Shown here one piece after another: positions 47,755 through 63,722 of a stretch of 64,000 nt of DNA; position 1 is the first letter of the stretch, and every line of letters starts with the position of its first letter. Made by a program: the position numbers and the translations under genes. The notes below the pieces were generated by a model, which searched no databases, was not told the DNA's origin, and saw nothing but the letters and a program-made list of their open reading frames with translations. This stretch comes from an uncultured virus (IMG/VR IMGVR_UViG_3300012267_000003) (Duplodnaviria; Heunggongvirae; Uroviricota; Caudoviricetes). The DNA is taken from the IMG/VR virus record IMGVR_UViG_3300012267_000003; one strand, written 5' to 3'.

Positions 47755-49524
47755 ATGCCAATAGGAAGTAAAATGCGAGAGCAAGACGAGGATTCAGTGG
47801 TCGTATCTAGTGTGTCACAAGTACAAAATATGATGAGCCGCAGAAGATCTGCTACCACTTCCAAGATACGCCCTCAAAGTCGTAAAATTACAAGTAGCAC
47901 CGGCTTTTTTGGGGGATCCGTAGGGTCTAGTGGAATGGGAGCTTTTAATAATGGTGGTGCAGCTATGGGCACGGCTACTAATGTGTACAGCCCCCACCTG
48001 TCTACTGATTTCCTAGAACTTCCTCAGACTCTTTCAGAACAGAGATCTTACTACCGATTTTTCTACAACAACGACCCTTTTGTCGGTCAAGCTATTGATC
48101 TACACACAGAATTGCCCCTATCAAAACTGAGGCTGACGCTTCCGAAAGGGTCTAATCCAGATCGCAACAGGGAGATCCTTCGATTTTTTGAGGATATGTC
48201 TAAGCGGACAAGGCTGCTCGACGTCCTGATTGATGCCACCCGTGAGTATTACGTGATTGGAGAGGCATTCATCTTTGCGGAAGATAGCGATGTGGAGGTC
48301 CCAGAATACGTGTACCTTGAGAGGGTAAACCGGTGGGATGCTGATACTGGAGAAACAACGACCACTTTGGAGCGTAGAGAAAATGCTGATTTGCTGATAG
48401 AGCAGTATAAGCAGAACAACTACAAAGGGTGGGATCGGATTATCCTCCTACCTCCTGATCAAGTGAATATAGAGTCGTTCCAGTATAGTAATAAAATACG
48501 AGTAGAGCTGGTACCCGATGAAAAAATCAAGTCGCTGGTACAAGCGGCGGCGATGGGAGATCAACAAGCTGCGGAATCTCTAGAAGACGTACCAGAAGAG
48601 ATTATCGAATTTATCGCTAATGCAGAGAATCTACCACTGGGGACCGACCCTTTTGAAGGGTCTTTCGTCTTTCAACTGTCTCGTAAAAAGCCCCCCGGTG
48701 AGGATCACGGTACTAGTATACTCCAGCGATGTCTCAGGACTCTAGTTTATCGAGACAAGCTCAGGCAGACCCAAACATCTATTGCTTCCCGAGCTATGAC
48801 GCCTAAACGTCTGGTGTGGGCAGAGGATATGGATGAGTACGATGTAGAGGATCTCCGGGAGCAGGTTGATATGGCACTGTTAGATCCTGACTACAGTATT
48901 ATCACGAACTTCAACGTAAACTGGGAAGAGATCTCTGCGAGGGACCGCCTTTTGGATCTCCGGGGAGAGTACGACATCACGAATGCGCAGTTGTTTGCCG
49001 GTCTTGGGGTGACTGAAAGTATGCTGACTGGAGACTCTCATGGGTACGCAGGTGAGAAGATCAATATTGAGGTGATCAACACTCGGTATATGCTTTATAG
49101 AGAACGTATACAGACTTATGTAGAGGAGCACTTGTTTAAGCCGGTGGCAGAGAAGAAGGGGTTTTTCGAATACGATGAATTTAATAACCGCATTCTTCTA
49201 TATCCCCGTCTTAGTTTCACTCGATTGGCACTCCGGGATAACCGAGATACTTTTGATGCGATGTTTAATCTGTATCAAAAAGGTTCGTTGTCTGTCGATT
49301 ACATCCTCGAATTGTTCAACCTAGACCCTCAAGCTGTAGAAGAGCGGCTGCGCGGGAACTTGATGACAGTAAACGATGCTATGTTCAACGAGATAATCCG
49401 ATCTGCTTATAGTGAGGTCGGTCGGGAAATGAAAGATCGATCGGATATGGTCGAACGAATCGTACAATACCTTGGCTTGCGGTATATCCCACCCGCAGAA
49501 GACGATGATGGTGGCAGATGGTAA
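47755..49524 (+). CDS. portal protein
   Basis: FYNNDPFVGQAIDLH, YYVIGEAF, HGTSILQRC, LFAGLGV; position after terL. Confidence 0.85.
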   Translation: MPIGSKMREQDEDSVVVSSVSQVQNMMSRRRSATTSKIRPQSRKITSSTGFFGGSVGSSGMGAFNNGGAAMGTATNVYSPHLSTDFLELPQTLSEQRSYYRFFYNNDPFVGQAIDLHTELPLSKLRLTLPKGSNPDRNREILRFFEDMSKRTRLLDVLIDATREYYVIGEAFIFAEDSDVEVPEYVYLERVNRWDADTGETTTTLERRENADLLIEQYKQNNYKGWDRIILLPPDQVNIESFQYSNKIRVELVPDEKIKSLVQAAAMGDQQAAESLEDVPEEIIEFIANAENLPLGTDPFEGSFVFQLSRKKPPGEDHGTSILQRCLRTLVYRDKLRQTQTSIASRAMTPKRLVWAEDMDEYDVEDLREQVDMALLDPDYSIITNFNVNWEEISARDRLLDLRGEYDITNAQLFAGLGVTESMLTGDSHGYAGEKINIEVINTRYMLYRERIQTYVEEHLFKPVAEKKGFFEYDEFNNRILLYPRLSFTRLALRDNRDTFDAMFNLYQKGSLSVDYILELFNLDPQAVEERLRGNLMTVNDAMFNEIIRSAYSEVGREMKDRSDMVERIVQYLGLRYIPPAEDDDGGRW

Positions 49525-51125
49525 TCTTATCGAAAAAAGATCCTTCGGAGAAGGAAGAGGAAGAGGTGGAGCGCCTCGTTCGGAAATCTCCAACTGAAAA
49601 GGCCCCCCGCCCTGACAAAGAGAGGGAGAGGATCCGTTTGGAGGATGAGGATGTAGATAAGGATGATAAGGATCTATCAATGAACTACAAAGACATTGGT
49701 GGGACCGTAGTCATGGCAATGTATGTAGCCTCTACTTATATGAAGAGAGCTATGGATTTCCCTTCTGAGCCCGCTTTCAAGGGATATATGGAGGAACACC
49801 CTGACGCCGACCCTTCTAACCACACCATCGACGGTGAGTCCTCTGACAAGGTATTAAACAAAGCCCCTGAGCCTACTAAAAAGCCTAAAAAGGAATCTGA
49901 ACCTGCTCCCAAACCTGCCCCCAAGAAAAAGGAACCTTCTGGTGAGGTTAGTAGAGAGCTTGAAACCGAGGCTCTTTATGATGCGGCGGAGAACGGTACT
50001 GAGGAAGAGCGCGATGCGGCGATGAAAATTATCCAAGAGCGTAAGAAGCCTTTACCTCCTGATATGCCTGATTCCTCAAAGTTTAAGGGGGAGCTGGGAG
50101 AAAAAGCTGTAGAGAGTCTCAAAAAACAGATCAAGAGCTGGGACGCACTGGATTATAGTCAGAATATGTTTGAGCTGGAGACAGATAAGCATATGGCTAT
50201 GATGGCGGGTAATGATCGAGATCGAGATTATTTTCAGTCAATTATGGAGGTGTATGAGGACTCTTCCGCTGCGGTCAGAACTGTGGATCTTCGGGAAGTA
50301 GATAGCCCCGAGGAGCTACTAGACATTGAAGACCCAGATGGTGCTTTTGGGGAGGACGACGCTCGGGATCTCCAGAAAAAGAAAAAAGACTGGTACCAGT
50401 CCTCTATGTTCTCCCCCCTAAATACCGTGGGAGGTCAGCTTACTAAGACACAGGATTTACTGGAAAAGGTAGATCCTGATTCTAAAAAGGGAGCCTATCT
50501 AAAAGAGATGGCTTCTGTATTAGAAGATGTAAGAGATCGTAAAATGTTGGATAAAAATTCAACGGCAGATAGGCTACTGATTGGCATTAGAGATTCAGAT
50601 TCTGAGGCCCTAAAGGACCTTGACCCCGGCGAATATGATTTTACCAACCCGCAGGAGATAGGAGATTTTGTAGGTAAAGTCGAATCTCTTAGCTCCGCTG
50701 ATTTGGCTCAGTTGGTAAAAGATGAGCCCCTGTACCGAATGCATTTTAGTTTTGGAGAGGGAGACAACCCTGACGAGGTGTCTATTACGGATAGGGAACG
50801 CAGATCGTTTGTAGACTCCCTTCGTGAAGACCTGAGCGTTAGGGGGACTTTCGAGCAGGTTAGGTTTCATGATGATGATACAAATAGCATGTTCGATAAA
50901 GGTTCATTGTTGGCATATAGAGATAAAGCGCTCAAAGATCTACAGGATCAAGGTTTCGACTTGACATCCCCCGAAAATTCCCATGCCAAGCCTTTTTGGG
51001 ATACCTTTTTTGATTGGATGTCTGATATGGGATCGAAAATGAGTCATGTTGATAATGCTCGTGCAGTACAGGCAGGCATTCAAAGTGCCTTCCAGAAAGC
51101 AGGTTTGTCTCAGGTTAGTCGCTAA
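49518..51125 (+). CDS. hypothetical head-associated protein
   Basis: Charged, low complexity; VASTYMKRA. Confidence 0.75.
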   Translation: MVILSKKDPSEKEEEEVERLVRKSPTEKAPRPDKERERIRLEDEDVDKDDKDLSMNYKDIGGTVVMAMYVASTYMKRAMDFPSEPAFKGYMEEHPDADPSNHTIDGESSDKVLNKAPEPTKKPKKESEPAPKPAPKKKEPSGEVSRELETEALYDAAENGTEEERDAAMKIIQERKKPLPPDMPDSSKFKGELGEKAVESLKKQIKSWDALDYSQNMFELETDKHMAMMAGNDRDRDYFQSIMEVYEDSSAAVRTVDLREVDSPEELLDIEDPDGAFGEDDARDLQKKKKDWYQSSMFSPLNTVGGQLTKTQDLLEKVDPDSKKGAYLKEMASVLEDVRDRKMLDKNSTADRLLIGIRDSDSEALKDLDPGEYDFTNPQEIGDFVGKVESLSSADLAQLVKDEPLYRMHFSFGEGDNPDEVSITDRERRSFVDSLREDLSVRGTFEQVRFHDDDTNSMFDKGSLLAYRDKALKDLQDQGFDLTSPENSHAKPFWDTFFDWMSDMGSKMSHVDNARAVQAGIQSAFQKAGLSQVSR

Positions 51126-52810: not shown

Positions 52811-54334
52811 GTGGCCCAAATGGCCTTTTCCAAGTTTGCTAAAGCTGTTGTACAAACACCCCGTGTAGGACTTGACGGATGGAATTCCTATCGAAGGAAG
52901 ATGGCCCATGCTGGGCTGGGTAGTGTAGATTTCGCCAACCGTGCGTCTTCTATTACTATTGAGAATTACAGCCCGGACAAGTACCTTCTTACTCACTGTA
53001 CTATTATCGCTTCTGTCGACGTAGAAGATACGTCAGGTAAGACCGGTAGTGATGTGGTTATCGCAGATGGTAGTAAGGTTAATCGGCCACATGCTGATTA
53101 TCTCATCAAGCCTGACTGCTCCAAATATATCAATCAGAATGGGGATGCTTGGGAGAGGAAGCTTCTCCTAGCTACCTATAAGACTTTCATTGGGGCGGAG
53201 AACTATGTAGAGCACATCCAGATCCCGGAGCTGTCTAAGGGTAAAATCATAGACGCTGTGGCTCGTGATCTGGGCGAAACGGTGTATGTAGACATTCTAG
53301 TAGCTACGGATCGTAAACACAAAGATCTCGTAGCACGGATCGAATCAGGGGATCTCAACACCCTGTCTATGGGATGCACGATCTCGTATTCCATCTGCAC
53401 CAAGTGTGGAAATCAGGCGATTGATGAGCCCCAACTGTGTAACCATGTCAAGTATGAGAAGGGTAACAAGTTCGTAGGACCCGATGGAAAGATCCGGGTT
53501 GTTGCAGAACTTTGTGGTCACTACACGGACCCAGAGTCTGTAAAGTTTATCGAAGCCTCTTGGGTCGGCAACCCCGCCTTTAAGGGAGCGGTAATGAGGA
53601 ATATCCTCAATTTGACGAACACCAAAGAGCCTACCCCCTATGAGCATGATAAATTACAGGACATGATCCAAGAGGCTCATATTAAATCCAATATGGCCCC
53701 GACCGAAGATTGGACTCAGTTCTTTTTGAAAACAGCTTCGCAGCTACAGGATATTCAAACTGGAATGTCTCAGGCATTGAAGTCCGGAAACTGGGATGAA
53801 GGGGGAGAGGAAGAGGAAAAAGAAGCTCCTCCGGCGGAAGAGAATCCGGGTCTAGTTGATGATGTGGCCGATGAGATCAAAGAAAAGATACGAAGGAAGC
53901 TCGTAGAGGATTTGCGAGAGGAATTGGGGGAAGAAGGTGGGCCTAAAAAGGTGACACCCGAGTCTGAGATTGCACCTAATGATTCCATTCACAAGTCGTA
54001 TCAGATTTTTGCTTCCCGGTATGCACGTGAACTTGGCGAGAAAACGAAACCCGTTTTCGACGTATTAAGCTTACTGGAGAGCAACAACCTATTTCTTGCT
54101 CATAAGCATACTCTATCCAATAGGGACATCATAACGGCCATGTATATTCATGATCGGGATGGTAAAAAAGAAACCCTTCCTACAAACATGTATGTATGTT
54201 TGCAAAAAATAGGGTCGGCTAAGAAGTACGGGTCTCTACGGCGCTTTTTAGTGGCTTGTTCAAAACAGATGGGTAAAAAACTATCACGTGGAGAAGCTGT
54301 TATATTGCTCGAAAGAGCAAAAATACTCAATTAA
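52811..54334 (+). CDS. prohead maturation protease with Zn-finger insert
   Basis: NQNGD, NYVEH, KGKIIDA, LSMGC..CTKCG..C.H, FIEASWVGNPAF. Confidence 0.8.
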   Translation: MAQMAFSKFAKAVVQTPRVGLDGWNSYRRKMAHAGLGSVDFANRASSITIENYSPDKYLLTHCTIIASVDVEDTSGKTGSDVVIADGSKVNRPHADYLIKPDCSKYINQNGDAWERKLLLATYKTFIGAENYVEHIQIPELSKGKIIDAVARDLGETVYVDILVATDRKHKDLVARIESGDLNTLSMGCTISYSICTKCGNQAIDEPQLCNHVKYEKGNKFVGPDGKIRVVAELCGHYTDPESVKFIEASWVGNPAFKGAVMRNILNLTNTKEPTPYEHDKLQDMIQEAHIKSNMAPTEDWTQFFLKTASQLQDIQTGMSQALKSGNWDEGGEEEEKEAPPAEENPGLVDDVADEIKEKIRRKLVEDLREELGEEGGPKKVTPESEIAPNDSIHKSYQIFASRYARELGEKTKPVFDVLSLLESNNLFLAHKHTLSNRDIITAMYIHDRDGKKETLPTNMYVCLQKIGSAKKYGSLRRFLVACSKQMGKKLSRGEAVILLERAKILN

Positions 54335-54528: not shown

Positions 54529-55545
54529 ATGAGTAGAAGAAAGCGTCTATCTTGGAAGACCAAAGAATCCAAGCGCCGTAACCGCAAAACGGCTGACCCC
54601 TATACAATGAATCAGGATCGAACTCATGTACCCGTTGAGGAGTATATGGTAGGAGATCCTTCCGAATGGGCTGAAGATCCCGTTGATGATCTGTCCCACA
54701 TGGACGGTACTGACCGGAATGAGATCGGAATGCCCGAAATGTTGCCCGAGAATCGTAGTGCTCGTTCTGTCCGTGAGGCCAGAATGCAGATTGCGAAAAT
54801 GGAGCAGCATTTCGAGAAAAAGGCTCTTCAATGTGTCCGCATCGCAGAAGCACTTCTTCCCGGTGCAGGCGAAGATGTTATCGCGGCACAAGCTCTCGAT
54901 CTAATGCCCCTTCCCGATGAGTCTGTAATGGACACATCGATCCGCCTTACAGATCTTGGTGTTCTTGCCTCGGAAGAGGAAGAAGAGGAAGAGGAAGAGG
55001 AGAAAGAGGCTTCCAAACTAAGCTCCGCTGAAATGCTTCGAATTATGAAAGCAGAAGAAGGCGAAGAGGAAGAGGAAGATGAAGCCAAAGAAGATGGCGA
55101 CGACGAAGACGATGAAGACGACGAAGATGAAGCCAAAGAAGCTGGCGACGACGACGCCGATGAAGATGGCGACGATGCCAAAGAGGAAGATGGCGAAGAA
55201 AGCGACAAAGAAGCCAGTGCATATCTGGACGAAGATCTTGACGCTATGCTCGCTGATATGGAAACCGATATGGGTGGCGACATGGGTACCGCAGAATTGG
55301 GTATCGATATGGAGCCCCAGCTCGATCTCCTAGACCACGAAGCGCTTCTGGAAGAGAGCGATGATGCATTGCAATCTCTTATGAACCAGAACTACGGGGT
55401 TGAAGCTACACAGAATAGCCGACAGGCTAACATTCGCAAAAAAGTCAATCAACTTGGGCGGGTGAAAGAAGCAGGTTCCACAGCTACAGATCCACTTTCA
55501 GGTCTGTGGGACAGTGCTCCCGACGTTTCCAACGTCTTTTCGTAA
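54529..55545 (+). CDS. capsid scaffolding protein (acidic)
   Basis: Long D/E tracts, repeated KEA, located between protease and capsid genes. Confidence 0.65.
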   Translation: MSRRKRLSWKTKESKRRNRKTADPYTMNQDRTHVPVEEYMVGDPSEWAEDPVDDLSHMDGTDRNEIGMPEMLPENRSARSVREARMQIAKMEQHFEKKALQCVRIAEALLPGAGEDVIAAQALDLMPLPDESVMDTSIRLTDLGVLASEEEEEEEEEEKEASKLSSAEMLRIMKAEEGEEEEEDEAKEDGDDEDDEDDEDEAKEAGDDDADEDGDDAKEEDGEESDKEASAYLDEDLDAMLADMETDMGGDMGTAELGIDMEPQLDLLDHEALLEESDDALQSLMNQNYGVEATQNSRQANIRKKVNQLGRVKEAGSTATDPLSGLWDSAPDVSNVFS

Positions 55546-55646: not shown

Positions 55647-56243
55647 ATGGCTCTTCCCGGACAAGCAAGCGGTGATTTCACCGAAAGCTCCTCTGCGCTA
55701 CGGATCATGTATGTAGGGATCCGAAACACAGCAGGTGCTAAACTCACAACGGATGCATTCGTCCAAACGAATCCACCCGCTCTACCCACAACTAATGTAA
55801 CGGAAACCCTTCCATCCGCTCCCAAACGTGGAGTTCTAGGTGGGTCCGTATGTTTCACTCGTCCCGACGCTGGTAACGGTATGGTCGGAGGCCCCGCCGA
55901 TGCCCGCACTGGAATCGTTCCCCTTGGTGTCTTCATCAATGACGCCGCAGGTAATGCGTATGAAAATACGCCCGGTCCTGCTTCCGGACAAGGCCCGTAC
56001 ATGTCTGGTCAGGGAACCTACGGCAACCGTCTCTATGAGACAAGCATTCTTGCTGGAACAGGCGCAGGTGATGCTCTCACTTATGCGGTTGGTGATTCCC
56101 TGTATGCCAGTGTCAATGGCTACCTAACCAATCTTGTAGATAGCGACAACACAGTTGGTGGAGCAGACGCAATTGTTATCGGTGTCCTCAAGATCGCGCC
56201 GGATTCCGTTCACGCTGAGATGGTCTACGACCAGCGCATCTAA
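55647..56243 (+). CDS. capsid decoration / cement protein
   Basis: Gly-rich beta protein (PLGVFIND, Y.VGD.LYAS..G.LT) directly before the MCP; AGGAGG SD. Confidence 0.7.
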   Translation: MALPGQASGDFTESSSALRIMYVGIRNTAGAKLTTDAFVQTNPPALPTTNVTETLPSAPKRGVLGGSVCFTRPDAGNGMVGGPADARTGIVPLGVFINDAAGNAYENTPGPASGQGPYMSGQGTYGNRLYETSILAGTGAGDALTYAVGDSLYASVNGYLTNLVDSDNTVGGADAIVIGVLKIAPDSVHAEMVYDQRI

Positions 56244-56266: not shown

Positions 56267-57154
56267 ATGTCTGACCAAACAACCCAGCTAGACAACGCGG
56301 CAAAGCAAGAGCTTATCAGCCGTCACATCACGAGCGCCGCAGGGCGAGCGAGATTGGCAGCTTCGATGACTCAACCGCTTCGATCCCGCAGAGATTATTC
56401 TGCTGTAGGACGCCGTACCTTCCTCGTAGAGCAGCTTCCTGACGGAGCGCTGCCCGTGTACGACAAAGATCCCGACGTCACCGCCTATGTGGTTGGTGAA
56501 GAGGGTGAAAATATCCTTGCCGTGCAGAAGCCAAAGCGTGTGATCTTCCCCTTGTTCGAGATTGCCTCGAACCCGGAGATCCCGATCACTCAGATCAAAG
56601 AGCGTCGTTTCGACCTCATTGCTCGATCGCAGCAGCTTGCGCAGGCAGCCATTCAAGCCGCCGAAGATGAACGTGTCTTTGCCGTACTTGATTCGATTGC
56701 GACAAACGGATTCGATTCCGTTCCCGGTAGCGTCAACCCTGATCTTCAGGTAGTTGCCCCCATTTCCTCGGCTGTACTTGCCGATGCGTTTGCTGAGATC
56801 GAACGACACGACCTTCGTGTTGCTCGTATCTACATGAACTCTAAAGATTACGCGGACATTCGTAAGTTTGGCCGTGAAATCTTGGATGTGAACAGCCAAG
56901 CCGAATTGCTGAAAACTGGTCTGCAATCCACCCTTTGGGGTGCTCAGATCATCACCAGCCGTTTGGTTCCCGCCGGATTCGTCTACGTATGTGGCGAGCC
57001 CGAGATGTTTGGACGTATCCCCGTCCGAACTGAGTTGACCGTTCTTAGCGCGGACAATCCGCGAGCTAGAATGATAGGTTTTTCCTGCTTCGAAAACTTA
57101 GGTATCGGAGCGTTTAATCCTCGTGCCCTTGTCCGACTTGTCGTACAGCGATAA
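56267..57154 (+). CDS. major capsid protein (HK97 fold)
   Basis: VEQLPDGALPVYDKD, FEIASNP, AAEDERVF, LWGAQI, FNPRAL; strong SD and downstream terminator. Confidence 0.88.
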   Translation: MSDQTTQLDNAAKQELISRHITSAAGRARLAASMTQPLRSRRDYSAVGRRTFLVEQLPDGALPVYDKDPDVTAYVVGEEGENILAVQKPKRVIFPLFEIASNPEIPITQIKERRFDLIARSQQLAQAAIQAAEDERVFAVLDSIATNGFDSVPGSVNPDLQVVAPISSAVLADAFAEIERHDLRVARIYMNSKDYADIRKFGREILDVNSQAELLKTGLQSTLWGAQIITSRLVPAGFVYVCGEPEMFGRIPVRTELTVLSADNPRARMIGFSCFENLGIGAFNPRALVRLVVQR

Positions 57155-57186
57155 GCATAAACCCTTGAAATAACAGGGTTTTATTG

Positions 57187-57217
57187 ACCCCCGGTTCGCA
57201 AGAGCCGGGGGTTTTTT
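57187..57217 (+). terminator. intrinsic terminator after the MCP
   Basis: ACCCCCGGTTC-GCAA-GAGCCGGGGGT-TTTTT. Confidence 0.85.
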
Positions 57218-57228
57218 AATGGCCGGAG

Positions 57229-57257
57229 TTGCTCTGTGGTGGGTGTAGTGGTATGGT
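57229..57257 (+). promoter_or_regulatory. sigma70-type promoter for MCP paralogue 1
   Basis: TTGCTC-N17-TATGGT with an extended TG. Confidence 0.5.
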
Positions 57258-57318
57258 TGTGGGTAACATGACCAAAGAATCTAGGTTGTAATATAACGTG
57301 ATGGTGTAGAGGGAAATT

Positions 57319-57957
57319 ATGAGTCAAACAGAAGATATGAGTAGGATGGATGAGTCTTTCGCCCGCAAGGTATTACACGCCGAAGAAGTCGCACGGACCA
57401 TCTATGATAAAGACGTAGACGCCCCTGCTTACATCATCGGAGAAGAGGGCCAGAGGATATTACAGGTGAATACGGGTGGCAAGGTGATAGTGCCAACTTT
57501 CCCCTATAAGTCGAGCCCACGGGTTTTTGGACCTACGAAGGCCACCAAGGATCGAATCCGTCAGGAAGAGGAATTGGTTATGCGTCTAGTCTTTTCGGCA
57601 TCTGATACGACGGCACACGGTCGGCTATCTGGAGAACTACTTATGTCTGCCCGCAAAGAGGTAGAGGCTTTCGATCTGGAGGCGAAGACGCTGGTCATTT
57701 CTCCAGACGATATGCCGCAGTTCGAGTCTGAGCTGTCTATGTCTTTTACCGAGGATGATACCTACTCATTGGTAGAGGCTACGGGACAGGTCTTGGGTCT
57801 GGACGTGTATGCACACCCCAGATGTCCACAAGGACATGCCTACCTGCTACAAGAAGCGCTGTATCTGGGCAGGGTATGCCTCTCGCAAGACAAGCCTCAT
57901 AAATGTGGAATGGCAATATTCAATCCACGACCCGTTGTGCATCTCTCATTTGAGTGA
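57319..57957 (+). CDS. truncated major capsid protein paralogue 1
   Basis: IYDKDVDAPAYIIGEEGQRILQV vs MCP VYDKDPDVTAYVVGEEGENILAV; GMAIFNPRPVV vs GIGAFNPRALV. Confidence 0.85.
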   Translation: MSQTEDMSRMDESFARKVLHAEEVARTIYDKDVDAPAYIIGEEGQRILQVNTGGKVIVPTFPYKSSPRVFGPTKATKDRIRQEEELVMRLVFSASDTTAHGRLSGELLMSARKEVEAFDLEAKTLVISPDDMPQFESELSMSFTEDDTYSLVEATGQVLGLDVYAHPRCPQGHAYLLQEALYLGRVCLSQDKPHKCGMAIFNPRPVVHLSFE

Positions 57958-58685
57958 TACATGAAGATCTGGAAATGCGTAGTACGAATACGAGAAGAGG
58001 TGTAGTAGTGGGTCTGAACTTTGGAAAGCTATCAGATGTTATGGGTTCGTTGGAGTCCAGTACGGGTAAATTGGTGGTGTTATCCTGTTTATGTACGGGG
58101 TGGACTCTACTTTTGTTGGACCCCCCAGAAACCTATGTGTTTTGGCTATCTACAATAACCTTTTTACTATCTTATTGGATAGCCTTCGGGGTTGTTTTTA
58201 AGCGCCCAGTTCTGAGACTAATTTGGAAGCTGAAACCACAGGTGCGTAATTTTCAAGATGTGTTGCGACTACTACCCGAAGACATGCGATGTTTTTTACT
58301 GTATTGTGTGTGTTTAGGTACTCCCCATTTTAAAAAGTTTTGGGGTTCTGGGCAACCTGTTCCTCCTGTTCTAGGCAAACTGGTCCGCCGGGATATGGTT
58401 TTAGTTCACCCCGATTCCGATAACTCGTATTATACGATTGATGGAGATTTTTGGGAATTTATTCGGAGTCATGAAGATGCGCTGTTTAATATCCCACCAT
58501 TAGCTGGGGATATTTTTGATGCGTATTCTTTTGTGTCGGATTACAGAGACTACCTTGGATCTTGGTCCGAGCCCTATACGCCTTTTCCACATCCATTGCT
58601 GAGCTATATTAAAACGGAACCCACCACAGGATCCCCATCCAACAAACCCAGCCCCCACGACCTACCACAAAGCTCTTCCTATTGA
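57954..58685 (+). CDS. two-TM membrane protein, SieB (superinfection exclusion B)-like
   Basis: Two hydrophobic helices then LRLLPEDMRCFL..LGKLVRRDMV..YTIDGDFWEFI, a winged-helix-like pattern. Confidence 0.45.
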   Translation: MIHEDLEMRSTNTRRGVVVGLNFGKLSDVMGSLESSTGKLVVLSCLCTGWTLLLLDPPETYVFWLSTITFLLSYWIAFGVVFKRPVLRLIWKLKPQVRNFQDVLRLLPEDMRCFLLYCVCLGTPHFKKFWGSGQPVPPVLGKLVRRDMVLVHPDSDNSYYTIDGDFWEFIRSHEDALFNIPPLAGDIFDAYSFVSDYRDYLGSWSEPYTPFPHPLLSYIKTEPTTGSPSNKPSPHDLPQSSSY

Positions 58686-58739
58686 CGAGTATGCACTGGT
58701 ATGGTAATGAGAATTATTCTACATCAGCCAAGGAAAAAT

Positions 58740-59351
58740 ATGTATGAAGATATGACAGGGATGGATCAGTCGTTTGCTCATACTGTACTGGAAGTAGACC
58801 AACTTTGGTATGCTTCTAGTATATATGACAAGGATGAGGATGCTCCCGCTTGTATTATAGGAAGGGAAGGGGATCAGATTTTACGAGTAGACAAAGGTCG
58901 TAGGGTTATAGTACCTAGTTTCCCCTACAAGTCGAGTCCTCTAGAGATCAAAAATCGTATTCGACAGGAAGAAGAGCTTGTTATATCTCTTTTAGACGCG
59001 ATAACTTGGGACGCCGCGTTACCTCGTAGGGAGGGCAAACTGTCACAAGAGTTGCTGGTTTCAGCTCTTACTGATATCGAGTCTTTGGATTTGAGGGCTT
59101 CCACGTTAATTATTTCTCCGGATGACGTACCTCTTTATGCGTCGGAACTATCCGTAGGGTTTCCCGAGTTCCGAGATACTTTTACGACTGAGGAGTTACG
59201 GGATAACCCTGATATGGTGATGAGCGCTTCCAATAGAGCCCATATTACCGTCATTGATGAGGAGGGTAATATTCGTATGTCTATAGGCTCTATCCCCTCC
59301 ACCAATAAAGTACAACACCACCGATGGCCGGATTCTCACCCTAAAAAGTAA
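58740..59351 (+). CDS. truncated major capsid protein paralogue 2
   Basis: IYDKDEDAPACIIGREGDQILRV, VPSFPYKSSP, RIRQEEELV; AAGGA SD; C-terminus unrelated to the MCP. Confidence 0.85.
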   Translation: MYEDMTGMDQSFAHTVLEVDQLWYASSIYDKDEDAPACIIGREGDQILRVDKGRRVIVPSFPYKSSPLEIKNRIRQEEELVISLLDAITWDAALPRREGKLSQELLVSALTDIESLDLRASTLIISPDDVPLYASELSVGFPEFRDTFTTEELRDNPDMVMSASNRAHITVIDEEGNIRMSIGSIPSTNKVQHHRWPDSHPKK

Positions 59352-59407
59352 AGAATGGTTATCCTTTTGTATTTACCTTTGGTTGGAATATACCAAAGGA
59401 ATTTAAC

Positions 59408-59911
59408 ATGAAGAAAACTTCCGCAATCCTGTCCTCTCTCAGAGCATTGCCCCAGCGGGGGTCCGTGGTAGAGTCCGTCCGCTTAAATAGTGAGGCGATG
59501 ATGGTACGTTTTGACGATGGTACTGGCATTTCTATGCCCATAACAGATTTTGAGGGGATCAGAGACGATGAGCATCTGGAAAATGCCATCTCTTGGTGTG
59601 AGACACTTTTCAATATGAAAAGGGCGCACGGGGTCGGAGGAGTTTTCCGCCGGGAAGAGTTAGAAATTCTAGTAGAGAAGGTGGTAGAAGATCCGCTTAT
59701 TGCAGATGCAGATAATCTTCGAGAACTTATTTTTCGTGCGACGATGCCGGACGAGGCTTTTACGGTAGGGGAGACGAAGACTACCTATAATAGTCCCGGT
59801 AGTCAGCCTCTATTACAAGAGCTACATTCGCAGTCGTTTTCAGATAAGATCTCTTCTGTGGCCCGGAAAGTAGCTTCCCGCTACATGGACCTTCTAAATT
59901 CTCACAAATAA
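59408..59911 (+). CDS. hypothetical protein
   Basis: AAGGA SD; TTATCCTTTTGTA motif at 59359; RKVASRY near the C-terminus. Confidence 0.75.
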   Translation: MKKTSAILSSLRALPQRGSVVESVRLNSEAMMVRFDDGTGISMPITDFEGIRDDEHLENAISWCETLFNMKRAHGVGGVFRREELEILVEKVVEDPLIADADNLRELIFRATMPDEAFTVGETKTTYNSPGSQPLLQELHSQSFSDKISSVARKVASRYMDLLNSHK

Positions 59912-59936
59912 TTGAACATATAGCCCGGTCTTATTC

Positions 59937-60137
59937 ATGCCTAAAATTGATTTCAATGCTCTGAATCTCAAAATCAGTCCCTTACAAGGGGGGAGTCTTA
60001 TTGAGGTAGGAGCCTTTAATAATAACGATCTGGCCAATTTTCAGACGATAGAAAATAATGACCGACAAGTACAATCAGCGCCGCTAGACGGTGCCAACCC
60101 ATCTGTTGGTACTTCAGAAGCAACCGAGGACGTATAA
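59937..60137 (+). CDS. hypothetical small protein
   Basis: TAATG coupling to the next gene. Confidence 0.55.
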   Translation: MPKIDFNALNLKISPLQGGSLIEVGAFNNNDLANFQTIENNDRQVQSAPLDGANPSVGTSEATEDV

Positions 60138-61177
60138 TGAGATATTCAGCAATTTGGACATCGAAGGGTCGACAGACTATTTCAATTCACGAAGATACCG
60201 TAGAGAAATTAAGAGATGATTTAAGATCATCTTTGGCTGCATCGAGTTTTGTTGTTTCTGACATAGCAAAATATTCTGGTAGTGACCCGGACAGCGATGG
60301 GTACGCTTTTATTGTCAAAAATGGGGCGAGGGAATGGCTTATTATGACCCCCCATAGCACTGACCCTAATAACTATATAGGGCGTATATTCACTGGTTCC
60401 ACAAATTCTGGGAATGTAGATGACTATTTCAAAAATTATGATGCCTCTTCTGCGAGTTGGTCTGAAGAGTCTAAGGTGTTGGTTCATTATAATTGCGGAA
60501 ATGAAAGCTATGGGATGGGGTTTGACGATGCCACTGCTTTGACCTACACGGGTGGCGATTTTTCTGCCCCTCTACACAACCCAGCATCCGCAGCTTATAC
60601 AGATTTCATGCCCGCTACAGAATGCCTACCGGGATATTACATGGATATCACATGGGACCGGTTCGATCGAATTCTCTTTGTGTTTGACGAGGACTCACCC
60701 AGCTTGGCTGTGTATTTAACCGATGGTTATGGTTTTGCAGCTTGCGGTCTTATGATGTTGGGGTCTATGACTGTTAATACAGATGGTGCGGATACAAATA
60801 CAGAGGCAACTCTATGTTTAGAGCTTGATTATGATGGTAGTCTTAAATGGGGTAGCATAGAGGCTGATCAAGCATACGCTTACAACTTGACCGGCGATGT
60901 GGAGCTTTTTGATTTATCATATACACAGGATCATTACACTTATGAGAATTCTCTTAATACATCTGGTGAGTACAAGTGGAAATCTATAACACTGGCAAGC
61001 GTAAGTTATGAAAAAGGAATTCTAGATACTAACTTAGTCAGACAATACGGTGCTTTTGCAAATTCGGCTCAGTATGGGAAAATAGTCAGTGGTCCCAATG
61101 GTCCGTTCTTAAAAACTACTTACAGTCTAGGGTTTCCGTACACTTTAAATACAGAGCGGTTTCCGTGGCCTGAATGA
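60137..61177 (+). CDS. probable virion structural protein
   Basis: S/T/G/Y/D-rich beta-type composition. Confidence 0.65.
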   Translation: MRYSAIWTSKGRQTISIHEDTVEKLRDDLRSSLAASSFVVSDIAKYSGSDPDSDGYAFIVKNGAREWLIMTPHSTDPNNYIGRIFTGSTNSGNVDDYFKNYDASSASWSEESKVLVHYNCGNESYGMGFDDATALTYTGGDFSAPLHNPASAAYTDFMPATECLPGYYMDITWDRFDRILFVFDEDSPSLAVYLTDGYGFAACGLMMLGSMTVNTDGADTNTEATLCLELDYDGSLKWGSIEADQAYAYNLTGDVELFDLSYTQDHYTYENSLNTSGEYKWKSITLASVSYEKGILDTNLVRQYGAFANSAQYGKIVSGPNGPFLKTTYSLGFPYTLNTERFPWPE

Positions 61178-61228
61178 GTTTGAAGTCTAAGATATCGTTT
61201 TACTGCATACAGAAAAAGGAGTAGTACT

Positions 61229-61660
61229 ATGGGCAAATATAAACAGAGCAGGTTAGTAGAGAATCTTATTCGGATCGGGGCGGATATTCCAAATTTGCAA
61301 GAGCACTTACGCCCTGTTTTGGATCATCTCAAGACGGCTTCTCAAAAGTTAGACTCTAGTGAGCGGAGAAGTGCGAATGCTGCTCTCCAAAGAGCAGGCT
61401 TTGACGGTAATGGTCGGTACCGTTCTGTAGGCACTGCCATCACAAAAGCCTTTCGAGTGTTAGAGGACTTTGGCATAGAGCCTGACGAGGTGTTTTCAGC
61501 TTTTGCCTATCAGAAGCCCGAAGGCACGGTCCCAATGAGTATTGCTTTTTCAAACCCGTCAGATCCGTTTAGCCCGGAGGCTATCTCCAACTCGGTCCTT
61601 CACTTTAGCTGGACCGAGCTAAGGCCCGACCACTTTGAAGTGGTCGCTTACCTCTCCTAA
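61229..61660 (+). CDS. protein with shared N-terminal tag
   Basis: LVENLIRIGADIPNLQEHLRPVLDHLKTAS; AAGGAG SD. Confidence 0.75.
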   Translation: MGKYKQSRLVENLIRIGADIPNLQEHLRPVLDHLKTASQKLDSSERRSANAALQRAGFDGNGRYRSVGTAITKAFRVLEDFGIEPDEVFSAFAYQKPEGTVPMSIAFSNPSDPFSPEAISNSVLHFSWTELRPDHFEVVAYLS

Positions 61661-61950
61661 GACCGGGTAGGGGCTAGTAGTTCATAGAGGTCGGGAGTCT
61701 GGTCCAAGGCTTCCTCGCAGATCTCAGACCCATCAAATGACAGCTCTTCCCAGTCCCCCGATGCTTCGATTTCCTCGACGTTTCCGAAACTGTCAGCCTC
61801 CGAGATATCATTGCAGAGGTCAAGAGCGTTTCCGTATTCATGGCATCGGTCATAATGTGCAAATTGCCGCTCGGGATTGTTGTAGTCAAATGCGGAGACG
61901 AAATGCATCCCCTCGTCGTCGGTAGAAATTTCGTAGGCTATAAAATTCAT
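61657..61950 (-). CDS. acidic hypothetical protein
   Basis: Likely start MNFIAYE after AAGGA. Confidence 0.55.
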   Translation of the reverse strand: MNFIAYEISTDDEGMHFVSAFDYNNPERQFAHYDRCHEYGNALDLCNDISEADSFGNVEEIEASGDWEELSFDGSEICEEALDQTPDLYELLAPTRS

Positions 61951-61987
61951 TAGGTACCATCCTTGGTAAAGCATTAAGGGGGATTTT

Positions 61988-62419
61988 TTACTCTTCGTCG
62001 CGTGTCGGCACTTCCGGGATAAGCATCCAGTACTCGTTGTTGGTGACCCGTCTCGAAATATCAGCTCGTAGGGCCACTTTATCTCCAAAGGCTTTGGCTT
62101 TATCTTCTGTATCGAACTCATAGAAGTGCATGAAGGTCGCCTCGGCATCGTCGTAACCACAGTGTCCGATGGTTAACAGAAGTTGATACACCGGAACCTG
62201 TTCCCCATTTTCCACCTTTGAAACTAAAACCACTTCGGGGAGCGCGTACTCATCGCTTTCGGGATGCCGCTGTCCCGCAAAGTGACGGGGACATTTGTGT
62301 TGCGTATCAAAGGGGCTGGATATCCATCCATAACCCCTACAAGGGCAATCAGAAGCCTCATCACGGGCAATAAGGCCCAGATTATTTCGAAAAGTATCAT
62401 ATGCGTATTGGAGGCTCAT
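61988..62419 (-). CDS. hypothetical protein with Cys/His motif
   Basis: CPCRGYGW..D..HKCPRH; AAGGA SD. Confidence 0.7.
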   Translation of the reverse strand: MSLQYAYDTFRNNLGLIARDEASDCPCRGYGWISSPFDTQHKCPRHFAGQRHPESDEYALPEVVLVSKVENGEQVPVYQLLLTIGHCGYDDAEATFMHFYEFDTEDKAKAFGDKVALRADISRRVTNNEYWMLIPEVPTRDEE

Positions 62420-62468
62420 GTCGTTTCCTTTCGTTCTTTAGTTGTTGTCATTTCGTCATGCTCACTTA

Positions 62469-62497
62469 ACTATACCCCAAGGTAGGACCCTCGTCAA
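62469..62497 (-). promoter_or_regulatory. sigma70-type promoter
   Basis: Minus strand TTGACG-N17-TATAGT. Confidence 0.65.
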
Positions 62498-62524
62498 AAA
62501 TGTTTTTTATCGACGCAAAAGCGG

Positions 62525-62537
62525 TAATCCTTTTATG
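62525..62537 (+). promoter_or_regulatory. putative late-promoter motif
   Basis: TAATCCTTTTATG. Confidence 0.6.
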
Positions 62538-62615: not shown

Positions 62616-63722
62616 ATGGCGAATAAAGAGTTTAGAAGTTATGTGGCTGCTGCAAAGATCAACATCGGTGTAGACAAGGAAACGAGCATCGCCGTTGATA
62701 AAGGCACGGTCGTAGAGTATAACGGTACAGTGGCTATTATTGAGGGAGAAGAGTACAATTTCCCGAAACTGAGTTCCGCGATCAAAGCCCGTTGGTTGGT
62801 AGATACGGAGGAGTTGGGCATTAATACAGCAGGTCCGTACCAGCCTCAGTCTGCTCATATTACTATGAGTGCGGCCACTCCCCAACAGAAAGATGTAGTG
62901 GCGTCCCGTGCTACTATTGCCGAGGAAGATCGGGAAGTAAGTAGCGTACAGGCTTTTCGTAGTGGAGAGCAACGAGATGCACAACAGCATCATGTACAGC
63001 AACAACAGCAACAACAGCAACAGGTACCGCAACATCGTCCGCCTTCCGCTGGGTTTCGAAATCAGATGGTTCTGGAACCTCAAGGTGGGGAAGAGGTTAG
63101 AGGTGTGAGTTTTACGACCAAAGCAGGATCCGAATCCCTTAAAGATTCGTTCCGAACAGATCAAGTAAGCCAAAATGCTACGCAGGAAGGCAACAGCAAT
63201 GCAAAGTTGGCGCAGTTCCAAGAGCTTGAACGGCAGAAAATGGAACGTGAGATTGCAGCATTGAAACAGCAGCTACAACAGCAAGCTCCGCAAGAGCAGG
63301 TACAGGTCCGTGAAGGTATTCAGTTCCGAACTGAGGGTATTTCAGAGAATGCTGCGGGCACAACACCTCAAACAGCGTCAAACCTTCCTGAAGGGATTTG
63401 GGACGGTCATGGTGCCGATGTAGTTGGGCAAGTAACAAAACAGGCTCAGGCTCAGGCCCCTCAACAGGCTCCACAGGTTCCACAGGCTCCTGAGTATGTG
63501 ACTCCTGAGATCTCTGTAGAAGATAAAGAATCTCGACTGGCATTTGCCCGGCAGATGATGCCCAATTTCGATTGGGATTTTGGACAGCACTGGAAGACCA
63601 AGCTCAAATCTTTGGAAACGAATGCCAATCCTCTATTTGTATGCACTGTGTATGCAGTAGAGTCTGATGCGATGAAAGTACATATTGCATCTCAGTTCCC
63701 GGATCTGAACCTTGGCGGTTAA
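62616..63722 (+). CDS. Gln-rich, largely disordered protein
   Basis: GAGGAG SD; poly-Q and QAP repeats between folded-looking ends. Confidence 0.8.
   Translation: MANKEFRSYVAAAKINIGVDKETSIAVDKGTVVEYNGTVAIIEGEEYNFPKLSSAIKARWLVDTEELGINTAGPYQPQSAHITMSAATPQQKDVVASRATIAEEDREVSSVQAFRSGEQRDAQQHHVQQQQQQQQQVPQHRPPSAGFRNQMVLEPQGGEEVRGVSFTTKAGSESLKDSFRTDQVSQNATQEGNSNAKLAQFQELERQKMEREIAALKQQLQQQAPQEQVQVREGIQFRTEGISENAAGTTPQTASNLPEGIWDGHGADVVGQVTKQAQAQAPQQAPQVPQAPEYVTPEISVEDKESRLAFARQMMPNFDWDFGQHWKTKLKSLETNANPLFVCTVYAVESDAMKVHIASQFPDLNLGG

Follow-up and report, generated by a model that had tools for sequence, protein, structure and literature searches.

Why should a very large phage carry, directly behind its major capsid protein (MCP) gene, two shortened relatives of that gene with a membrane protein encoded between them? 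We examined this question in a 64,000-nucleotide stretch of DNA (hereafter the window, meaning the whole of the stretch analysed) from an uncultured member of the Caudoviricetes, IMG/VR record IMGVR_UViG_3300012267_000003. The three genes in question, which we call the cassette, had been singled out in an earlier reading of the sequence (the original prediction). All the open reading frames (ORFs) that it named, the MCP gene, par1, the middle ORF and par2, are present where it placed them, and the locus is laid out as follows.

56267–57154, + strand: MCP, 295 amino acids (aa), of the HK97 type (PF05065, E 2.7e-7; phrog_2522, E 2.7e-50).
57163–57219, + strand: intrinsic terminator with two hairpins, closing the head operon; the second has a 12-bp stem at 57186–57213 with 8 GC pairs, followed by a T-run to 57219.
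57319–57957, + strand: par1, a mini-MCP of 212 aa with the HK97 fold; GAGGG precedes its start.
57954–58685, + strand: middle ORF, a protein with two transmembrane (TM) segments and no known relatives (ORFan), of 243 aa from GTG 57954, which overlaps the par1 stop, or 225 aa from GTG 58008.
58701–59351, + strand: par2, a mini-MCP of 216 aa from 58701 or 203 aa from ATG 58740.
57631–59341, unstranded: presence/absence segment of 1,711 bp; without it, par1 keeps 104 aa and both the middle ORF and par2 are gone.
59361–59370, + strand: promoter-type motif ATCCTTTTGT, which opens the next transcription unit and marks the 3' limit of the cassette.

We find that the cassette is an optional accessory module in a variable island just downstream of the capsid gene. 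Sequence comparisons indicate that the two mini-MCPs arose by duplication long ago and have been kept by selection, and a structural model suggests that they probably do not serve as bricks of the shell. We propose, at a probability of roughly 0.3, that they are lattice-incompetent capsomer mimics used in phage conflict. The source of the window is a phage-G-like megaphage, as judged from its MCP, whose identity is 78% with the MCP of uncultured phage LR745208 (485 kb), 48% with that of Tunturiibacter phage Tunturi_5 and 40% with gp27 of Bacillus phage G. Megablast of the window returned no close phage record, and the public sequencing runs that contain the region are labelled as lake-water metagenomes.

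The gene starts affect how the proteins are compared. The true start of par2 is most likely ATG 58740, because AAGGA precedes it, the N-terminus of par1 aligns with it, and the corresponding form in the protein library (P0005) begins there. The middle ORF may likewise start at GTG 58008, which has AGAGG upstream and equals library form P0004, rather than at 57954. Shine-Dalgarno-like sequences precede all three cassette ORFs. Among the 685 ORFs of at least 40 aa in a six-frame translation of the window, MCP, par1 and par2 were the only MCP-like sequences. A repeat search found the par1/par2 homology and short two-copy words only, with no terminal repeats marking a mobile element. By codon usage, the cassette cannot be told apart from the remainder of the phage, and no conclusion on a foreign origin follows from it.

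That par1 and par2 are paralogues of the MCP, as had been predicted, was borne out by BLASTP. Par1 matches the MCP over its whole length, including the C-terminal FNPR strand (E 6e-15, 25% identity), and par2 matches MCP residues 64–194 only (E 2e-11); the two are 52% identical to each other over ~155 residues (E 2e-46). Both fall below the cut-offs of curated capsid profiles: PF05065 matched neither at E ≤ 0.1, phrog_2522 matched par1 over residues 97–185 only (E 3.6e-5) and par2 not at all, and the NCBIfam profile capsid_Caudo_2 (NF042927) gave 15.4 bits for par1 and 10.7 for par2 against a cut-off of 80. Structure prediction places par1 in the HK97 fold. An AlphaFold2 (AF2) model built on an alignment of 13 short family members had a mean predicted local distance difference test (pLDDT) score of 92.6 and a predicted template modelling score (pTM) of 0.88. 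All of its Foldseek matches in the PDB were HK97-type capsids or encapsulins (E 3.9e-7 to 1e-5), and VIA-align superposed 182 residues on HK97 prohead I (Z 14.2, root-mean-square deviation 3.8). The VIA-align fold matches also included PDB 1yue (Z 12.7), which we take to be T4 gp24, and PDB 9gyi (Z 12.7), presumably the Ccm protein of capsid-forming phage-inducible chromosomal islands (PICIs). In BFVD the top match was phage G gp27 (E 3.5e-16, TM-score 0.68), and the ESM Atlas returned capsid-type neighbours only, with no named cluster of mini forms.

The main difference between par1 and the MCP lies in what has been lost. Par1 is ~80 residues shorter, and MCP residues 4–37, 107–122, 146–158 and 258–274 have no counterpart in it; the loss at the N-terminus and the shortened IKERRFDLIARS segment (MCP 107–122) had both been predicted. 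Using the alignment, the secondary structure of the model and knowledge of the HK97 fold, rather than a superposition, we assign these four gaps to the N-arm (4–37), the first 16 residues of the spine helix (107–122), an A-domain loop (146–158) and the P-domain hairpin (258–274). By three of the four losses, par1 would thus be deprived of its N-arm and of the far end of its P-domain, with which an HK97 subunit extends beneath or towards the capsomers around it. Par1 retains the E-loop hairpin, the A-domain and what is left of the spine helix, its C-terminal half. Par1 therefore does not have the complete lattice-forming set of N-arm, full spine helix and P-domain hairpin. The mini-MCPs probably are not shell bricks, because the parts that make contacts within a building block are kept and those that link blocks are lost. 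The "non-assembling mimic" of the original prediction is a fair reading of this anatomy, in which capsomer-linking parts are missing, although as a statement about behaviour it goes further than anatomy demonstrates.

Conservation is unevenly spread over par1. The E-loop region (par1 residues 26–62) is identical to the phage's own MCP at 18 of 37 positions (49%), in contrast to 16–25% in the other four regions (6/24, 10/40, 7/45 and 15/62). Only 7 of the 18 identical residues are encoded by the same codon in both genes, which argues that the likeness has been kept at the protein level and does not stem from recent gene conversion. At the site of the lost P-domain hairpin, par1 residues 166–199 (57814–57915) carry a His/Cys pattern, HP.CP.G ... 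GR.C ... KCG. These residues are common to par1 and its homologues P0002 and P0003 and partly to P0006 and P0008, and none occurs in the full-length MCPs at that place; the group could be a metal site or a disulfide.

Par2 has diverged further at its end. Its residues 17–158 are recognisably the family part (E 1.3e-41 with a profile built without par2), and its last ~58 residues did not match that profile. The swapped C-terminus described in the original prediction is real, since the tail goes unmatched by the par2-free profile and no remnant of the family C-terminus was found in the other frames at par2. We also considered the tail as a second copy of the E-loop, on a weak match of E 0.22, and rejected this because the par2-free profile scores it at −1.3 bits; a collinear match of the tail to a profile that contains par2 is circular.

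Par1 belongs to a wider family of short forms. A word-indexed search of the protein library yielded two homologues among 264 candidates, P0002 (213 aa, 59% identity) and P0003 (210 aa, 51% identity), both at 96% coverage. A profile of par1, par2, P0002 and P0003, run against 1.84 billion representative proteins, matched 38 proteins at E ≤ 1e-3, nine at E ≤ 1e-10 and five at E ≤ 1e-30. Among the 38 were further short forms of 190–249 aa without the N-arm, and many others were full-length MCPs, fragments or frameshifted calls. We aligned 11 of the short and 6 of the full-length matches with the three proteins of the window, giving 13 short and 7 full-length sequences. The short forms begin without the N-arm and have internal gaps in common, with some variation in four outliers; such gaps are not artefacts of contig ends, which cannot produce internal gaps. 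In a maximum-likelihood tree, nine short forms, including par1 and par2, cluster together (support 86/90). A single origin is likely for this core group only, because four of the 13 short forms (P0007, P0012, P0013 and P0032) branch among the full-length MCPs. Searches for related loci with the short forms recovered only the lineage of the window, or nothing, from viral and metagenome contigs, and nothing from genome contigs.

The divergence between par1 and par2 bears on whether these genes were ever of use. Over 143 codons, synonymous sites are saturated with differences (proportion of synonymous differences, pS, 0.897) and the non-synonymous proportion (pN) is 0.268, a pattern which indicates that purifying selection has acted on both genes through most of their past. 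Together with the full-length homologues at 51–59% identity, this argues against neutral decay, which the original prediction had named as grounds for abandoning its proposal, at least for residues 1–150.

The cassette is dispensable. Three contigs (L004, L005 and L009; two IMG/VR contigs, one of them also present as a JGI record) are 99.5–99.7% identical to the window on both flanks and lack exactly the segment 57631–59341, so that par1 is cut after residue 104 and stops immediately. The junction shows no microhomology. A fourth contig (L008), 99.97% identical, has the cassette intact. We checked for both alleles in Logan contigs of four sequencing runs. One run (X1), which may be the sample that the window came from, contained the intact form only, on a 3,278-nucleotide contig at depth 19.6. 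In another (X2), a contig with the 57630/59342 junction was present at depth 6.6 alongside four short cassette pieces at depths of 2.4–3.8, and the intact and deletion alleles thus seem to coexist there. Because full-length homologues exist in diverged lineages, we infer that strains originally had the intact form and that the short one arose by deletion, and we take the deletion genomes to be viable from their abundance. In the complete genomes of LR745208, Tunturi_5 and phage G, the short-form profile found a single match each, the MCP itself, and the genes that follow the MCP gene in phage G (gp28) and Tunturi_5 (gp335) are unrelated to par1 (E 52 and 0.19).

The cassette occupies a gap between two transcription units and has no recognisable signal of its own. 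The strong terminator that had been predicted behind the MCP gene is real, as shown by its 12-bp stem, its T-run and its folding (minimum free energy −31.5 kcal/mol, z −4.0). On the other side, the motif ATCCTTTTRT begins 10 bases behind the par2 stop. It occurs five times in the window (6020, 11240, 51125, 59361 and 62527) against 0.51 copies expected, and none of 100 shuffled sequences reached five. Each of the five lies on the + strand, in intergenic DNA ahead of a gene on that strand, often with TA or TT directly before it, and from this placement we take the motif as probably a phage-specific promoter element of the megaphage. The copy at 51125 opens the stretch from 51172 to the MCP gene that the terminator closes. 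As the original prediction had stated, the cassette genes are not preceded by the phage motif: our scan of the window found no ATCCTTTTRT before par1, the middle ORF or par2. The host-type promoters proposed in its place did not hold up. A sigma-70 consensus scan gave no + strand site upstream of par1 or par2, sigma-70-like sites over the region numbered 8 against 10.8 expected from shuffles, and the candidate TTGCTC at 57229 agrees with the consensus at only three of six positions. A 14-nucleotide word, TG.A.TGGTATGGT, stands upstream of both par1 (57244–57257) and par2 (58692–58705) and could be a trace of the duplication or a coincidence; GGTATGGT, a short word common to the two upstream regions, was not enriched in the window (5 matches, 3.1 expected). 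The early expression put forward in the original prediction thus depends on promoter candidates that do not exceed chance. Read-through of the MCP terminator, which would make expression late and low-level, is equally possible, and an unrecognised promoter may also drive the cassette.

These observations bear on an alternative in which the mini-MCPs are optional minor virion proteins, placed at pentons or portal-proximal sites in small amounts by terminator read-through. T4 gp24 is a vertex paralogue of the capsid protein gp23. Like such dedicated vertex proteins, par1 is a shorter HK97 paralogue encoded directly downstream of the MCP gene on the same strand, its E-loop region is conserved with the MCP, and a terminator upstream with no promoter motif of its own fits a low copy number. 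In mycobacteriophage Jabs, ORF73 (257 aa, MCPp) is reported to form the pentons and the adjacent ORF72 (594 aa) the hexons. Vertex paralogues are, however, needed for the shell, whereas no second MCP-like gene exists in the three complete relatives, including phage G and the phage whose MCP is 78% identical, and par2 and half of par1 are deleted in strains of 99.5–99.7% identity, as the major form in one sample. The cassette also differs from vertex paralogues in having two diverged copies around a membrane protein and in lacking the elements that hold the lattice; the N-arm and P-domain tip, which a penton needs to grip the hexons, are missing. The same two facts, one MCP-like gene in 3/3 relatives and the deletion in near-identical strains, argue against the paralogues being essential parts of the virion; late expression and incorporation into virions is the other outcome that the original prediction had conceded would overturn it. 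We consider the optional virion protein improbable.

The gene between the mini-MCPs had been described as a SieB-like protein with two TM segments. The TM segments are supported by hydrophobic stretches at residues 36–58 and 60–83. Its relatives are few: in the protein library only its own copy matched, with one substitution (one of 460 candidates; none of 23 shorter candidates). A tblastn search of 50,697 phage records gave nothing below E 2, there was no Pfam, PHROG or PADLOC match, and NCBIfam remained far below threshold (16.3 bits, cut-off 170). The ESM Atlas placed it nearest to SieB clusters (score 0.93, 202 of 256 features shared), and its ten best named matches there all belong to one family or clan, a uniformity that a third of shuffled proteins also reach. 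A structure search likewise put a SieB cluster in the top row (TM-score 0.39–0.43) on a weak model (pLDDT 0.59); an AF2 model made without an alignment (pLDDT 39.7) was unusable for a fold search.

The likeness to SieB is one of layout. With the same hydropathy window, P22 SieB (192 aa) has hydrophobic segments at ~12–47 and 51–78, and the middle ORF shares with the SieB proteins of P22 and lambda (PF14163) the arrangement of two N-terminal membrane segments followed by a soluble C-terminal part. Unlike them, it is ~50 residues longer and is encoded by a presumably lytic megaphage rather than a prophage. The layout fits the SieB-like description, to which the language-model features may point as well, and membership of the family fails by Pfam and by BLASTP (best E 1.8 to P22 SieB); going by its sequence, the middle ORF is SieB-like in layout and not a SieB member. 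A PF14163 search of a deletion strain (G001) found nothing, as expected. The complex predicted for par1 and residues 86–243 of the middle ORF scored 0.00, which is evidence neither way. When P22-like phages superinfect, P22 SieB is reported to shut down macromolecular synthesis halfway into their lytic cycle (PMC10883804).

Equally improbable, in our assessment, is that the cassette consists of functionless remnants of old capsid-gene duplications that are now being lost. Its presence/absence polymorphism, with a common deletion form, its absence from relatives, the unrelated tail of par2 and the lack of a recognisable promoter all fit such relics. So does the middle ORF, an ORFan with a codon-usage score no better in frame (0.767) than out of frame (0.778) and with three strain-level single-nucleotide polymorphisms, two of them non-synonymous and one synonymous. 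Relics are hard to square, however, with par1-type proteins that persist in other lineages at full length, with the same internal deletions and at 45–59% identity, or with a pN of 0.27 at saturated synonymous sites. The compact, confident AF2 model of par1 and the Shine-Dalgarno-like sequences at all three ORFs point the same way.

The hairpin that par1 has best conserved with the MCP lies at the surface, which would suit another role, that of an immune decoy or antagonist in which a soluble MCP look-alike occupies host sensors that recognise capsids. CapRel, Lit and PifA are capsid-sensing defences, and an accessory, strain-variable distribution is generally what anti-defence genes show. The known sensors are, however, activated by binding capsid protein, so that a decoy would have to bind them and block them without activating them, which is mechanistically awkward. 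The three cassette proteins had no match in PADLOC, which covers host defence proteins only, and our literature search, within the texts accessible to it, found no MCP-derived decoy. We hold this role to be quite improbable. A self-directed assembly helper, which would hold the MCP of its own phage in solution or adjust how a very large head nucleates, is very unlikely. In its favour, the cassette adjoins the head genes, the E-loop region is conserved and relatives such as phage G have very large heads; against it, near-identical strains do without the cassette, and three complete relatives lack it, including the ~0.5-Mb phages G and LR745208. What probability remains after these four alternatives and the reading that we prefer goes to something else.

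That preferred reading is that the mini-MCPs are capsomer mimics in conflict between phages, for which we propose the following mechanism. The mini-MCPs would attach to full-length capsid subunits or to the partner, whichever it is, of the conserved E-loop region. Once bound, they would be unable to extend the lattice and would act as capsomer caps or mimics, and when related phages co-infect the cell, such caps could disturb the building of their capsids. A second, possibly independent, exclusion function would come from the SieB-like membrane protein next to them. What comes directly from the data, by observation or computation, is the fold with its missing parts, a conserved family under purifying selection, the fact that strains can lack the cassette, and its place between two transcription units; that the mini-MCPs bind MCP and interfere, what they target, when they are expressed and how they connect to the membrane protein are steps that we add. 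Among the readings considered, interference appears the most economical because the gene is optional, lies in a variable island and stands beside a SieB-like protein.

Several results weigh against this proposal. Its main weakness is specificity: the mini-MCPs are only ~25% identical to their own MCP and to other full-length MCPs alike, and we have no explanation of why a competitor would be hit and their own phage spared. The deletion is the more abundant form in run X2 (6.6 against 2.4–3.8), with no obvious advantage of the cassette there. The middle ORF has no homologue beyond its own copy, and the three-gene set was seen in one phage lineage only. PF14163 (cut-off 26 bits) did not match the middle ORF even at E ≤ 10 under three choices of start or segment, and the best BLASTP alignment to P22 SieB covers 9 residues. 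Par2, with its unrelated tail, may be partly degenerate, and the core clade of short forms, which leaves 4 of 13 among full-length MCPs, is not strongly supported.

How new the mini-MCPs are can be judged against the capsid proteins they resemble. From phage G gp27-type MCPs (PF05065, phrog_2522), with which par1 shares the fold and a clear common ancestry, it differs in being ~80 residues shorter, in its four missing elements, in scoring below the family cut-offs and in being dispensable. The Ccm protein of satellites is a complete shell former used in conflict over capsid assembly and is likewise an HK97-fold MCP homologue carried as an accessory gene. Unlike Ccm, the mini-MCPs, at ~210 aa, are without the lattice-forming parts, and their genes are located within the head and late region of the phage itself, with flanks colinear with phage contigs and no satellite genes in view; the island ORFs covered by general family scans included no integrase-type match. 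An MCP derivative without N-arm and P-domain tip, carried as an accessory gene, was not found in the literature searched, which took in only a minority of subscription journals. Vertex paralogues and satellite capsid proteins are thus already known, and within the same literature the accessory mini-MCP appears new, with a real chance of representing a new functional class.

The cassette is the first part of a longer variable region, and the head module upstream of it is of the kind expected for the phage.

57220–62530, unstranded: variable island, from the MCP terminator to a conserved 368-aa gene at 62616.
47755–49524: portal (phrog_16240, E 1.2e-29).
52811–54334: protease (phrog_18299, E 2.5e-15).
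54529–55545: acidic scaffold-like protein.
55647–56243: decoration-like protein of 198 aa, 52% identical to its LR745208 counterpart and located as the phage G decoration gene gp26.

From ~5 kb on, nearly all large ORFs of the window are on the + strand. When the nine ORFs at 57319–62419 were compared by tblastn with the equivalent region of LR745208, none had a match at E ≤ 1e-3. Between its MCP gene and a conserved 360-aa gene, that phage has other ORFs, among them one of 1,229 aa (L001, 9077–12766) directly behind the MCP gene, in the place equivalent to the cassette. The site behind the MCP terminator seems to be an insertion hot spot.

The MCPs of cassette-plus and cassette-minus strains differ by two nucleotides, both non-synonymous (T22A and S192A); we considered these as bypass-type changes and found no support, A192 being also the LR745208 state. 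In the decoration-like gene, substitutions and small indels are clustered at 55904–56161 in run X2 and in the deletion-strain contigs, including a length difference of one residue; the protease gene shows no differences. A 346-aa ORF (60137–61177, + strand) differs by 15 nucleotides and 13 amino acids between strains otherwise 99.5% identical, with a cluster at 104–110, and the contigs of three runs break at 60163 into the same alternative sequence. It has no family match in Pfam, PHROGs, PADLOC or NCBIfam and, from its pattern of variation, looks like a diversifying surface or receptor-binding protein. Further on, overlapping ORFs of 167 and 143 aa at 61657–62419 (− strand) are the only sizeable reverse genes of the late region. 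They have no family matches, a sigma-70-like site with 10/12 matches lies near them on the minus strand at 62497–62469, and the pair looks like a moron-type insert.

If the mini-MCPs are an optional vertex protein or relics, the finding is an ordinary one. It is unlikely that they form a new accessory class, either as dominant-negative caps that poison the assembly of rivals or as bait that reports foreign capsid to a SieB-like effector. If the conflict reading is true, that conflict would show itself in how the cassette is gained and lost in the lake population. The presence/absence polymorphism supplies paired genomes in which the effect of the cassette can be tested. Proteins of this kind, if they act on capsid assembly or on its sensing, would be a simple and portable tool against other phages or host immunity, and, as a defined reagent, they would also help to tell the parts of the HK97 fold that are enough for contacts within a capsomer from those that are enough for contacts of the lattice.

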